Assembly: GCA_049792755.1 (NCBI GenBank)
Contig: JBARBF010000079.1
Span: 5,218-69,217, forward strand
DNA: 64,000 nt
Reading direction: 5' to 3'
DNA from: Bacteroidales bacterium
Lineage (GTDB): Bacteria; Bacteroidota; Bacteroidia; Bacteroidales; VadinHA17
The translations under genes and the position numbers were made by a program. The notes beneath the pieces were generated by a model. That model did not search any database and was not told the DNA's origin. It worked only from the letters and a program-made list of their open reading frames with translations. Positions 25,996-44,167 of this stretch are shown here, in pieces (the first letter of the stretch is position 1; every line of letters starts with the position of its first letter).

Positions 25996-27261
25996 ATGAA
26001 GAAAGCCCTTCCATATATAATATTCATTTTGCTTTTATTCTGGCACGTGGCTATTATGGCCCAGGACCGGTTTCCACGTCCTGAATTTGAATCAGGTCAT
26101 GTTTATCCGACCAATCAGATGCCTGTTCCAAGAGCTCAGGTATGGGAATATTTTGACGTGGTCGTCCTAATAGCTGCACTGGCAGTAACAACCTGGCTGG
26201 CATTGAAAAAACGTTCACGACAGGGTTTGGTATGGATGTCACTCTTTTCCCTTGCATATTTTGGCTTCTACAGGGAGGGCTGCATTTGTGCCGTTGGCTC
26301 AGTTCAAAATGTATCCCTCGCATTATTTAATACAGGATATTCTATACCACTTACAGCACTTTTGTTCTTTATAATTCCTTTGTTATTTGCTCTTGCCTAC
26401 GGACGAGTTTTCTGTGCAGGAGTTTGCCCTCTCGGAGCTATCCAGGAACTAACGGGTATTAGGCCGGTCAAGCTTCCAAAATTTATTGAAATATTACTGG
26501 CAGCTGTGCCTTTCATTTATCTTGCGGTTGCAATTCTGTTCTCTTCAACTAACAGTCAATTCATTATATGCAGGTATGATCCTTTCGTTGGGATATTCAG
26601 GCTCGATGCCCCGTATACAATGATAATTTTCGGAGCTCTGTTACTTTTAGCCGGGGTATTTGTAAACAGACCATACTGCAGATTCCTTTGTCCGTATGGC
26701 GTTCTTTTAAATATTTTTTCAAGATTTGCAGGTAAGCATCTGACAATAACCCCTGCAGAATGCACAAATTGCAGGCTTTGTGAGGAGGTTTGCCCTTATA
26801 ATGCTATAATCCCTTCAAATCTGGAAGAAAGATTGGAAGAGCCGGAGAAGTCAAGAAAACATTTCATTCAGTATTTTGTTCTTGTTCCGGTATTTGCAGT
26901 CGCCGGAGCTTTATTACTCTACAACATGGCTCCTGTTTTGTCAGGAGCAAACAGTACTGTAAGACTGGCCAGAGAAATCCGGACAGAAAAGAAAAGCGGT
27001 ATTGAATCACCATTGAAAGATGTAATTGCTTATAAAGAATCGGGGAAAACTGAAACGAAACTATATAATGAAGAAGAATTAATCATCGGACGTTTCAGGA
27101 ATTATTCACCCTGGGCCGGGGCATTCCTTGGAATATCATTCGGAATAGGTATGATATCTCTGACAATAAAGAGCAGACGAACCGAATATAAGCCCAACCA
27201 GGGTAAGTGTTACAGCTGTGGCAGATGTTTTAAATATTGTCCGATTAAAGTAAAGAGCTGA
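25996..27261 (+). CDS. membrane polyferredoxin of the NapH/MauN/NosR/CcoG (CX3CP) superfamily
   Basis: 421 aa with multiple TMs. Two CX3CP motifs are present (RVFCAGVCPLGAIQE, RPYCRFLCPYGVL). Two 4Fe-4S motifs follow (CTNCRLCEEVCP, CYSCGRCFKYCP). Confidence 0.8.
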   Translation: MKKALPYIIFILLLFWHVAIMAQDRFPRPEFESGHVYPTNQMPVPRAQVWEYFDVVVLIAALAVTTWLALKKRSRQGLVWMSLFSLAYFGFYREGCICAVGSVQNVSLALFNTGYSIPLTALLFFIIPLLFALAYGRVFCAGVCPLGAIQELTGIRPVKLPKFIEILLAAVPFIYLAVAILFSSTNSQFIICRYDPFVGIFRLDAPYTMIIFGALLLLAGVFVNRPYCRFLCPYGVLLNIFSRFAGKHLTITPAECTNCRLCEEVCPYNAIIPSNLEERLEEPEKSRKHFIQYFVLVPVFAVAGALLLYNMAPVLSGANSTVRLAREIRTEKKSGIESPLKDVIAYKESGKTETKLYNEEELIIGRFRNYSPWAGAFLGISFGIGMISLTIKSRRTEYKPNQGKCYSCGRCFKYCPIKVKS

Positions 27262-41930: not shown

Positions 41931-42220
41931 ATTTTTACAGGGATTATTGCCCGGACATAACTGACACTTTAATTCTATTCAATATCCAGTTGATATATGA
42001 AATAAGTCTTATAAGCATTTCTAATTATGATAGCTGAGCTGATTTTTTTCTGTTAAAAGGCGTCAATTAATATGGATAGTTAAAAAACATCAGGTGTAAA
42101 AATAATCTAAATGTGCATTATGTCAGCAAAGCATTAAAATAAATTAATTATCATTGAAGATTATTGAATCCTATATTTAGGAGTTGTGAAAATCAAAACA
42201 TTTAATGATATATGCCTTAA

Positions 42221-44167
42221 ATGAACGTTAAAATTAATCATTTTATTAATCTGTTAATAATCTTTGGTTTTGGATTGATTCCAGCTATTATTTGCCAGTT
42301 TTTTACCGAAAAACCTGTCAGCAGGCATATTCATATAAGGAGTTTCAGGTATGGGAAGGATCCTTATGTTATAAGATGCAACAGGGGAGACACTCTTCTT
42401 TTGACTTTTTCAACAGACGATACCGGACATTCCTTTTTTCTGCAGGAGTTTGACATTGATGTCAAAATCAGCCCTTCCAGCGATGAGGTTACAGTTTTTA
42501 AAACAAGTGATCCGTCCAGTAGACCGGTTATTATGAAAGAAGTAACACTTGTAGCCAGGCATAACGGGATATATAATTACATAGTATCAAAAAGCAACTA
42601 CCGCTGCCATGTCTGGTGCGGGCCAATGCATGCATTTGAACAAGGCAAGCTTATCCTGTTGCCTAATACACTGCTGATATTCAGTCTTGGAAGCCTTATC
42701 GGGATATTTTTTATCTGGCTTGTAGCAATTTTCAGAAATGTCAAAAAGGAAAATATTACAGACAACGGGAAAGAAGGGTACAAAGATATATTATCGGGTC
42801 ACTCTTTCCTGAGGAAAATAGTTATATCGAGGTACACACAGGCGACTCTGACAATTATTACGATGGTAATGATTTACATTGTGATCCTGACTTCTGTTTT
42901 TGGCACCAAAGTTTCAGGGAGGAACATAGGAGTACTTCTGATGTGGGCCGTATGGTTATTTGCACTTGTAGCGGTTATTACCCCGTTTTTTGGAAGATTC
43001 TGGTGCACTATCTGTCCATTACCGTTTTTCGGTGATCTTATTCAGAGAAAATCATTCTTTAATCCGATTAAAGGCAAAACAAAAAAATATAACAATAAAT
43101 TTTCAGGGCTGTTCCTGAAGTGGCCAGAGTGGCTAAAAAATGACTGGTTAAGATTGCTGGTCTTTTTGATTCTTGCAACTTTTTCAACAACCCTGGTTGC
43201 AACTCCTTTTATTTCAGGTGTGACAGTAATTATGCTTATGGTTGTTCCAACGATTATGTCTGGAATATGGGAACTGAGAGCATTTTGTCGTTATGTGTGC
43301 CCGGTAAGTGTCTTTGTCGGACCTTTTTCGAGGATGAGTACATTATCGCTCAGAAATAAGTCGCAGGATGTCTGCGACCAGTGCAAGCCGCACTATTGTG
43401 AGAAAGGAAATACAGCAGGATGGGCTTGTCCATATGGCCTCAATGTCGGGAAAATGAGGGAGAACTCTGATTGCGGACTTTGCCTGGAATGTCTGAGAAG
43501 CTGCTCTTATAATAATGTATCTCTGTATGCCCGGCCTTTTGCGACAGAAAAAGGGTCACGGAATTTAAGTGAAGGATGGATGACGATGGCAAGTTTTACA
43601 ATTTCTATAATATATAGTATTCTGTACCTGGGACCGTGGCCTGTAGTTCGCGACTATGTAAACATTATGGATAAACATAACTGGGGTTTATTCGGGATAT
43701 ATACTCTTGTTATGTGGGCATTTGTTCTGATAATTGTTCCGGGGATTATATATCTCCTTTCATATGCCGGTTTGCGACTTTCAAAATATAAAAGATCCGT
43801 GAAACAGGTATTTCTTGAGAATGCGGGCTCCCTCCTTCCTTTCGCACTCATGAACTGGATAGCATTTGTAATTCCAATGCTATTCGTGAATGTTACTTTT
43901 ATAAAACAATCATTATCCGATCCGTTCGGATGGGGATGGGATTTTTTCGGAACAGCTAATACACCTTGGCATCAATTTATACCTCAATATATTCCCTGGC
44001 TTCAGGCAATAGCTGTACTGGCCGGGTTATACCTTAGTTTAAGAAACATCAGAAGGTCGGCCATAGTCCTTGAATTGAATCCAAAGAAGACTTTAATGCT
44101 TAGTTTACCGATAAGTTTTTTTCTGGCAGGTGTGACTACACTAATGTTGTTCTTCTTCACAAACTGA
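42221..44167 (+). CDS. membrane polyferredoxin (CX3CP family) with an N-terminal periplasmic CuA/COX2-like cupredoxin domain
   Basis: 648 aa. After the N-terminal TM come DDTGHSFFLQEFDIDVK and YRCHVWCGPMHAFEQGKLIL (C-x3-C-x3-H-x2-E). CX3CP motifs RFWCTICPLPFFGD and RAFCRYVCPVSVF follow. Fe-S motifs CDQCKPHYCEKG...CPYG and CGLCLECLRSC are present, with about 5 further TMs after them. Confidence 0.7.
   Translation: MNVKINHFINLLIIFGFGLIPAIICQFFTEKPVSRHIHIRSFRYGKDPYVIRCNRGDTLLLTFSTDDTGHSFFLQEFDIDVKISPSSDEVTVFKTSDPSSRPVIMKEVTLVARHNGIYNYIVSKSNYRCHVWCGPMHAFEQGKLILLPNTLLIFSLGSLIGIFFIWLVAIFRNVKKENITDNGKEGYKDILSGHSFLRKIVISRYTQATLTIITMVMIYIVILTSVFGTKVSGRNIGVLLMWAVWLFALVAVITPFFGRFWCTICPLPFFGDLIQRKSFFNPIKGKTKKYNNKFSGLFLKWPEWLKNDWLRLLVFLILATFSTTLVATPFISGVTVIMLMVVPTIMSGIWELRAFCRYVCPVSVFVGPFSRMSTLSLRNKSQDVCDQCKPHYCEKGNTAGWACPYGLNVGKMRENSDCGLCLECLRSCSYNNVSLYARPFATEKGSRNLSEGWMTMASFTISIIYSILYLGPWPVVRDYVNIMDKHNWGLFGIYTLVMWAFVLIIVPGIIYLLSYAGLRLSKYKRSVKQVFLENAGSLLPFALMNWIAFVIPMLFVNVTFIKQSLSDPFGWGWDFFGTANTPWHQFIPQYIPWLQAIAVLAGLYLSLRNIRRSAIVLELNPKKTLMLSLPISFFLAGVTTLMLFFFTN

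Follow-up and report, generated by a model that had tools for sequence, protein, structure and literature searches.

A NapH-like polyferredoxin joined to a periplasmic CuA-type cupredoxin with glutamate at the axial methionine position

To our knowledge, CuA centres occur solely as electron entry sites in haem-copper oxidases, in NosZ and in a few NO reductases, and always with an axial Met. Protein chemists have explored this axial position through mutagenesis. NosZ is a periplasmic enzyme that combines a propeller with CuA, and it is fed by NosR. Here we describe a gene that joins a NapH-like polyferredoxin core to a periplasmic cupredoxin head of the CuA type, in which Glu stands at the Met position. 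It lies in a stretch of 64,000 nucleotides (nt) from a Bacteroidales bacterium (GenBank assembly GCA_049792755.1, contig JBARBF010000079.1, positions 5,218 to 69,217 of the forward strand); we call this whole stretch the window, and coordinates given without a contig refer to it. The gene is called c0 below, while c1 denotes the gene of an FG-GAP propeller and c2 that of a TPR protein. The features of c0, with the evidence for each, are these:

42221..44167, + strand: c0, cupredoxin-polyferredoxin fusion, whole gene, 648 amino acids (aa) (open reading frame; homologues; ratio of nonsynonymous to synonymous substitution rates, dN/dS, 0.07-0.08 against relatives)
42233..42307, + strand: transmembrane helix 1 (TM1), signal anchor, approximately residues 5-29 (hydropathy; helix 5-26 in the full-length model)
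42308..42670, + strand: periplasmic CuA-type cupredoxin domain, residues 30-150 (AlphaFold 2 model, Foldseek, PDB profile matches, search of representatives)
42662..42733, + strand: TM2, which takes the chain back to the cytoplasmic side (hydropathy and Lys/Arg counts; helices of the full-length model)
42830..43564, + strand: NapH-like core, TM3-TM6 plus cytoplasmic Fe-S domain, residues 204-448 (Fer4_5, TIGR02163)
43004..43018, + strand: motif C262-T-I-C265-P (C-x2-C-P), with C262, C265 and P266 invariant
43286..43303, + strand: motif C356-R-Y-V-C360-P (C-x3-C-P) (sequence; family alignment)
43373..43432, + strand: first 4Fe-4S motif, C385-x2-C388-x4-C393-x9-C403-P (sequence; family alignment), C388 being His in some Met-clade members
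43472..43504, + strand: second 4Fe-4S motif, C418-x2-C421-x2-C424-x3-C428, invariant in the family alignment
43565..44164, + strand: C-terminal module of five TM helices, residues 449-648, with no family match (helices from the full-length model)
43916..43975, + strand: conserved periplasmic loop S566-DPFGWGWDFFGTANTPWHQ, a candidate docking surface that contains no Lys or Arg (family alignment)

The gene is intact and constrained. Hydropathy, Lys/Arg counts and the helices of a full-length AlphaFold model give 11 TM helices for the protein. This model was built from 27 close homologues and has a mean predicted local distance difference test score (pLDDT) of 50, and we took only helix positions from it. 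The chain begins with TM1, a soluble domain of ~120 residues, TM2, a Lys/Arg-rich loop, TM3-TM4 and GRFWC262TIC265P, and continues with a second Lys/Arg-rich loop, TM5-TM6, FC356RYVC360P, a Cys-rich domain and five more helices. Five helices separate the cupredoxin domain from the Fe-S domain, placing the two on opposite sides of the membrane, and all Lys/Arg-rich loops fall on the Fe-S side. The Fe-S clusters of NapH are cytoplasmic (PMC5449189). Since five helices intervene, and taking the clusters of c0 to be cytoplasmic as in NapH, we place the soluble domain in the periplasm. The loop of the SDPFGWGW type is placed outside because it is free of Lys and Arg. A preliminary description of this gene had put a single N-terminal helix before the cupredoxin; both hydropathy and the model helix agree with this, and the predicted topology does not put the domain that follows in the cytoplasm.

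Residues 30-150 were compared with known structures in several ways. In a single-sequence phmmer search of the PDB, the top matches were all CuA domains, with subunit II of the Thermus ba3 oxidase best and c0 His70 aligned to its CuA ligand His114. A profile built exclusively from the Glu clade (39 sequences from at least six phyla) matched CuA domains and nothing else (E 2.7e-5), and a profile with Met-type relatives included matched CuA domains at E 7e-17. The AlphaFold 2 model of the domain, based on a 118-sequence alignment, has a pLDDT of 88.9. Submitted to Foldseek, it found the CuA domains of ba3 and NosZ best (probability 1.0, TM-score ~0.63), and the top 50 consisted of the ba3 CuA domain, the NosZ CuA domain, AcoP and Cupredoxin_1.

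A search of 1.84 billion cluster representatives with the same residues yielded 201 relatives at E <= 1e-3, of two types. The close type reads HSFF...RCHV[WY]CGxMH[AG]FE. The distant type (30-40% identical, whole-domain E values of ~1e-11 to 1e-7) reads HGF[FY]LEG...RCSxTCGxxHPFM, and its ligand loop is the canonical C-x3-C-x3-H-x2-M. Members of this distant, or Met, type exceed the Pfam threshold for COX2, and the NosZ and CoxB models match them through their CuA ends. Cupredoxin_1 is matched weakly by 21 of the 39 Glu-clade domains, and NCBIfam does not recognise the cupredoxin domain of c0. We conclude that residues 30-150 of c0 are a genuine CuA-type cupredoxin. The preliminary description had proposed a CuA/COX2-like domain with identical ligand spacing and Met replaced by Glu, and fold, profile and ligand alignment are in agreement on this point. 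Two features define the ligand set:

42428..42430, + strand: His70 in TGHSF, the equivalent of the first CuA histidine (aligned to Thermus ba3 His114; invariant in 39 Glu-clade sequences)
42605..42640, + strand: ligand loop C129-H-V-W-C133-G-P-M-H137-A-F-E140, in which Glu takes the place of the axial Met (Met-type relatives have RCSxTCGxxHPFM in the same columns)

The corresponding strings of c0, TGH70SFF and YRC129HVWC133GPMH137AFE140QGK, give H...C-x3-C-x3-H-x2-E. The full CuA set, H...C-x3-C-x3-H-x2-M, is incomplete: H70, C129, C133 and H137 are kept, and the Met position is occupied by Glu140. We followed the ligands through 27 close homologues, 70-odd genome loci and the 39 Glu-clade sequences. 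In all three sets, the last of them a cross-phylum alignment, the two Cys, two His and Glu are invariant, as are four further residues (the whole set being H70, C129, H130, C133, G134, M136, H137, F139 and E140). The Glu clade also differs in having His for Ser after the first Cys and two insertions of ~15 and 7 residues. When the 118 domains are arranged in a tree, one branch has all Glu types on one side and all Met types on the other, with support of 96 and 92 in the Shimodaira-Hasegawa-like approximate likelihood ratio test (SH-aLRT), and the Glu/Met state changes once. Rooting with the COX2 protein of this genome and with a CuA-cytochrome c protein did not polarise the change, because the outgroup branches were too long. 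We infer that Met is the ancestral state solely from its universality in other CuA domains.

An invariant Glu in one clade across at least six phyla means that natural selection has fixed this ligand change. Mutation of the axial ligand is known to shift the reduction potential of CuA (PMC6115626). By analogy with type-1 copper, a carboxylate ligand would be expected to lower it, and the most likely role of Glu140 and the clade-specific His130 would be to tune a copper centre to a lower potential, suiting anaerobic electron flow. The same substitution can be read as decay, in which case the head would be a degenerate, metal-free cupredoxin with no role other than to dock, or give structure to, the propeller or the C-terminal loop. 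The loss of the Met ligand, the scores below Pfam thresholds and one relative (P0155) that has lost three ligands would fit this idea, and CyoA of the quinol oxidases is a precedent for a copper-free CuA domain. However, the four retained ligands together with E140, H130 and M136 are invariant in the 39 sequences, while the surrounding surface varies, and the head domain is under strong purifying selection (dN/dS 0.02-0.07). We regard a metal-free head as very unlikely.

The membrane core is recognised by the Fer4_5 family of Pfam in two stretches (28.5 bits, cut-off 22), and the best NCBIfam match is TIGR02163, NapH/MauN (29.4 bits, E 5e-7, versus a cut-off of 213). The Fer4_5 repeats carry one CX2CP and one CX3CP motif, CX3CP being the expectation for the NapH type. 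Of the two CX3CP motifs reported earlier, C356RYVC360P stands, whereas C262TIC265P is CX2CP throughout the family. The two Cys clusters described with them (C385/388/393/403 and C418/421/424/428) are conserved in the family alignment. Pfam detected neither FMN_bind (at E <= 1) nor FixG_C in c0, and the architecture matches the NosR-like logic first suggested for it, with a cupredoxin instead of the flavin mononucleotide (FMN)-binding domain. For the C-terminal module, searches of Pfam, NCBIfam and the PDB gave zero matches. In its loop, S566, D567 and P568 are invariant, and G570, W571, G572 and W573 are conserved in at least 90% of the family alignment, even at 28-40% overall identity. When the PDB was searched with a profile of the full-length c0 family, the head domain alone matched; for the membrane core and the C-terminal module, no relative with a solved structure turned up. 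There are more than 1000 homologues of c0, with source labels that read solely 'polyferredoxin' or '4Fe-4S binding protein'. These data identify c0 as a NapH-like polyferredoxin core joined to a periplasmic CuA-type cupredoxin head.

To define the company that c0 keeps, we clustered the neighbours of the 80 best c0 loci. The FG-GAP gene lies immediately beside c0 in 62/79 loci, with five more in which its call is split by a frameshift, and a TPR protein with an N-terminal anchor is encoded within five genes of c0 in 44 loci. These two are the only neighbours of c0 conserved across phyla. The order c0-c1(-c2) is co-directional in Planctomycetota, Desulfobacterota, Acidobacteriota and Gemmatimonadota, and c1 is divergent from c0 in Bacteroidales. 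Among 41 related genomes, c0 and the propeller are both present in nine and both absent from 32, the nine being the same for each. The FG-GAP protein (465 aa) has an N-terminal anchor and seven blades (Pfam FG-GAP_3). It is 49-60% identical between phyla and contains four conserved His (His146, His243, His339, His418) and strongly conserved acidic, aromatic B-C loops. The conserved partner of c0 is a membrane-anchored, seven-bladed FG-GAP propeller.

Our preferred reading, to which we assign a probability of roughly 55%, is that c0 is a NosR-like transmembrane conduit, running from two [4Fe-4S] clusters through the CXnCP core to a periplasmic, Glu-ligated, CuA-like centre that serves the FG-GAP propeller. 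The anchor helix sets the CuA-type cupredoxin in the periplasm, and five further helices with the CX2CP and CX3CP motifs lead to the cytoplasmic Fe-S domain, with the C-terminal module offering its strictly conserved Trp-rich loop to the periplasm. Electrons would be taken up on the cytoplasmic side, where the donor could be ferredoxin, an NAD(P)H-derived carrier or menaquinol, as proposed for NapH. They would then pass via the Fe-S clusters and membrane core to the copper centre, which is probably binuclear and CuA-like, with H70, C129, C133 and H137 as ligands and Glu140 replacing the axial Met. From there they would move on to the co-inherited, membrane-anchored propeller as the likely catalytic or substrate-binding partner, with the TPR protein possibly acting as a scaffold or assembly factor.

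Several observations weigh against this scheme. c0 lacks the axial Met, one of the ligands that define CuA, and neither COX2 (PF00116) nor Cupredoxin_1 matches c0 at E <= 1, the domain falling below the Pfam threshold. P0155, a full-length Glu-clade relative of 651 aa, has Q, N and N for H, C and C, keeping H137 and E140; because it lacks the first His and both Cys, the site is dispensable in at least one lineage. With a pLDDT of 50, the full-length model is too poor to relate the Fe-S clusters geometrically to the CXnCP motifs or to the predicted copper site. A PDB profile search and NCBIfam detected no relative of known function for the propeller. Lastly, c0 and its partner genes are unlinked in this genome, and the 6.7-kb contig (C161) that carries the propeller gene could be mis-binned.

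The core of c0 belongs to the same Fer4_5/NapH-like superfamily as CcoG, and this raises the question of whether the protein handles metal. In such a scenario, the head would bind copper or another metal as a substrate, not as a cofactor, and the Fe-S core would reduce Cu(II) to Cu(I) for uptake, for detoxification or for loading a cuproprotein such as the propeller. The carboxylate and the extra His (E140, H130) would make a harder, possibly more exchangeable site, and the caa3-type oxidase subunit II of this genome needs copper. Genes of the CopA, CopZ, CusF, Sco and PCuAC types are, however, absent from the conserved neighbours, and c0 has no FixG_C domain according to Pfam. The Met sister clade has the complete canonical CuA ligands, as is usual for a cofactor fixed in place for electron transfer. 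That c0 is strictly inherited together with a single propeller argues for a dedicated partner, though this could be the protein being metallated. We consider a CcoG-like metal reductase unlikely.

Relatives of c0 are widespread. Using the SDPFGWGW-loop region as the search pattern, we scanned 185,579 genomes and found them in at least 567 species genomes, and the carriers of the module come mostly from fens, peat, permafrost, sediments and digesters. Hosts of the Glu clade are mostly anaerobic or fermentative wetland taxa. Within the phylum, c0 is present in one genome, the one described here, of a 300-genome sample; within the genus, it occurs in 9/25 sampled genomes.

In the Met clade, the cupredoxin is either fused to the polyferredoxin or made as an anchored protein from a gene of its own just upstream of the polyferredoxin gene. 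This alternation of fused and split forms, a Rosetta-stone link, supports direct functional contact between cupredoxin and polyferredoxin. Three loci (L075, L078, L080) show the split form, with a separate anchored cupredoxin upstream of a ~490-aa polyferredoxin that keeps the C-terminal module. A CuA-cytochrome c fusion is encoded downstream of the polyferredoxin, and a plastocyanin-like protein upstream of the cupredoxin. A protein of ~430-500 aa is also encoded upstream in L080 and L078, not seen in L075, and the L080 copy has an N-terminal CxxCH. In that operon (L080 5294-10902), this ~500-aa CxxCH protein has no Pfam match and is a possible porin-cytochrome. The operon follows a sigma-54-type response regulator, and oxidase subunit I was not seen within the flanks. 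In three Met-clade members (P0223, P0260, P0192), the C388 position is His (CREH, CLKH, CIDH), which suggests that the first 4Fe-4S cluster may be differently ligated in this lineage. A weak match from the representative library, P0268 (686 aa), carries two canonical CuA-type cupredoxin domains in tandem ahead of a region resembling a beta-propeller; it is a further 'CuA plus propeller' architecture, distinct from both NosZ and the c0 family.

A monohaem cytochrome c gene is adjacent to c0 in 13 loci, as expected for an electron-transfer cupredoxin. In nine loci of the Prolixibacteraceae type (L011, L017, L027, L028, L034, L036, L044, L045, L048), a monohaem cytochrome c of ~140 aa is encoded directly beside c0. 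Also beside c0 in these loci is a gene for a ~350-380-aa protein with an aromatic C-terminal residue and no Pfam match, a possible outer-membrane barrel. Given cytochrome c genes adjacent to c0 in some loci and a possible porin-cytochrome in Met-clade loci, one can imagine an inward or reversible conduit, in which the copper domain would take electrons from cytochrome c or a propeller dehydrogenase and deliver them to the quinone pool or the Fe-S clusters. Proteins of the NapH type are proposed to exchange electrons with quinol (PMC5449189), which would suit this direction. Yet transfer from copper to a ferredoxin-type cluster is thermodynamically uphill according to established potentials, the mostly fermentative or anaerobic habit of the Glu-clade hosts speaks against it, and Pfam/NCBIfam and PDB searches found no dehydrogenase signature in the propeller. 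We judge inward flow to be quite unlikely.

A bolder version of the outward conduit would make c0 and the propeller a new periplasmic metalloenzyme, a 'split NosZ with its own NosR', in which the propeller holds a catalytic metal site and a Cys2His2+Glu+His centre is fed from Fe-S clusters. The four conserved His and the conserved acidic B-C loops of the propeller prompt this idea, which seems to us improbable. If it were true, anaerobic bacteria of wetlands and sediments would have in this pair a hitherto unrecognised reductase, either terminal or acting on an extracellular substrate, and the centre would be the first case in nature of a CuA-type site whose axial ligand is a carboxylate.

The unlinked arrangement in this genome can be traced by comparison with relatives, in which the propeller gene usually lies next to c0, with the second PQQ-like propeller gene on its other side. 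Two features lie there in this genome:

41935..42095, no strand: ~160 nt where relatives have the 1.46-kb FG-GAP propeller gene (blastn of the window versus L062, L003 and L001)
42096..42160, no strand: conserved non-coding element of ~65 nt, from the intergenic region between c1 and c0 in their ancestral divergent arrangement, near-identical in relatives

The sole propeller gene of the genome is on contig C161 (270-1703; L081), in a context like that of L005, and the TPR gene is on contig C162 (23159-24964; L084). We found no second c0 or remnant of it beside either gene. The propeller gene is intact and constrained (dN/dS 0.056). Either the module is dispersed in this genome or C161 is mis-binned. 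The ~65-nt element, GTAAAAATAATCTAAATGTGC.TTATG.CAGCA..GCATTAAAATAAATTAATTATCAT, is more conserved than the flanking genes (~77-87% DNA identity), and it occurs again on C161 (L081 214-277), ahead of the relocated propeller gene. Its retention upstream of both unlinked genes suggests a common control element, perhaps an operator or promoter region that the two share. Scans of the element against Rfam and for inverted repeats were negative. A sigma-70 and terminator scan placed promoters at or near background, with a model that is not informative for a Bacteroidota promoter. Other neighbours of c0 in the window are propellers, a TetR regulator and an efflux pump. Elsewhere, the genome encodes one canonical haem-copper oxidase subunit II (C32:38389-38604, L083; CAEYCGLQHSYM) with a C-terminal cytochrome c domain, i.e. 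of the caa3 type. The organism thus makes a normal CuA centre in any case, and its gene content is not that of a strict anaerobe.

Upstream in the window is a NuoEF/NapGH/propeller island, and c0 had been put forward as an electron entry or exit point for it. The island NapH-like gene (25996-27261) is present in 25/25 genus genomes, one of which (G320) has two copies. Since c0 and its FG-GAP partner occur in only 9/25, the island is core and the pair accessory. The island copy is found no more than ~17 kb from c0 here and in 3/8 c0-bearing relatives, but not in the other 5/8. This phyletic pattern and the lack of linkage in five relatives led us to reject c0 as a general partner of the island, and the conserved neighbours, FG-GAP and TPR proteins, point the same way; the proposed role for the island is not borne out as a rule.

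A search of the available literature for a cupredoxin-polyferredoxin fusion, for its pairing with a propeller and for a natural Glu-type CuA found no description, and no curated family covers the c0 head domain or the C-terminal module. The c0 family appears to be undescribed, as do the Met-type sister modules. What is new here is a NosR/NapH architecture with a different, re-ligated copper head: a CuA-type domain is coupled straight to an Fe-S membrane core of the NosR/NapH type, with no oxidase involved. Identifying the substrate could reveal a new route by which anaerobes deliver electrons to the periplasm without multihaem cytochromes. The question is made testable by a cultured carrier, Prolixibacter bellariivorans ATCC BAA-1284 (locus L052).

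How, then, does c0 compare with known systems? It shares with the CuA domains of ba3 (Thermus thermophilus, PDB 2cua / 1ehk_B) and NosZ the cupredoxin fold, the D-x-x-H-S/G-F context and C-x3-C-x3-H, but it has an invariant Glu for Met, an extra invariant His after the first Cys and insertions of ~15 and 7 residues. Its domain is attached neither to oxidase subunit I nor to a CuZ propeller, and it scores below the Pfam COX2 threshold. The Met-type modules are homologous in both cupredoxin and polyferredoxin, including the C-terminal module and its SDPFGWGW loop. They keep C-x3-C-x3-H-x2-M, are often split into two genes and are accompanied by further cupredoxins, a CuA-cytochrome c fusion and a possible porin-cytochrome, whereas the c0 type is found with the FG-GAP propeller and the TPR protein. 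NapH, NosH and MauN resemble c0 in their Fer4_5 membrane repeats and in their pair of C-terminal, cytoplasmic 4Fe-4S motifs, but c0, at 648 aa, has 11 TM helices versus 4 and a fused periplasmic copper-type domain, and no gene for a NapG-type partner is adjacent to it. The cupric reductase CcoG (FixG/RdxA) likewise combines a NapH-like polyferredoxin with an extracytoplasmic beta-sandwich domain and has a functional link to copper. In CcoG, however, this domain is a C-terminal immunoglobulin-like FixG_C, in c0 an N-terminal cupredoxin, and a ccoHIS (ccoGHIS) or copper-ATPase context is absent around c0.

c0 is built like NosR, NirI and RdhC (PceC): it is anchored at its N terminus, with a redox head in the periplasm, helices bearing CXnCP motifs and a pair of 4Fe-4S motifs on the cytoplasmic side. 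The head of that class binds FMN and is flavinylated by ApbE, whereas that of c0 is a CuA-type cupredoxin. Unlike NosR, c0 has an extra C-terminal module of five TM helices with the SDPFGWGW loop, its first motif is CX2CP, and nos, nir and rdh genes are not found near it. The apparent division of labour between cupredoxin and propeller recalls NosZ.

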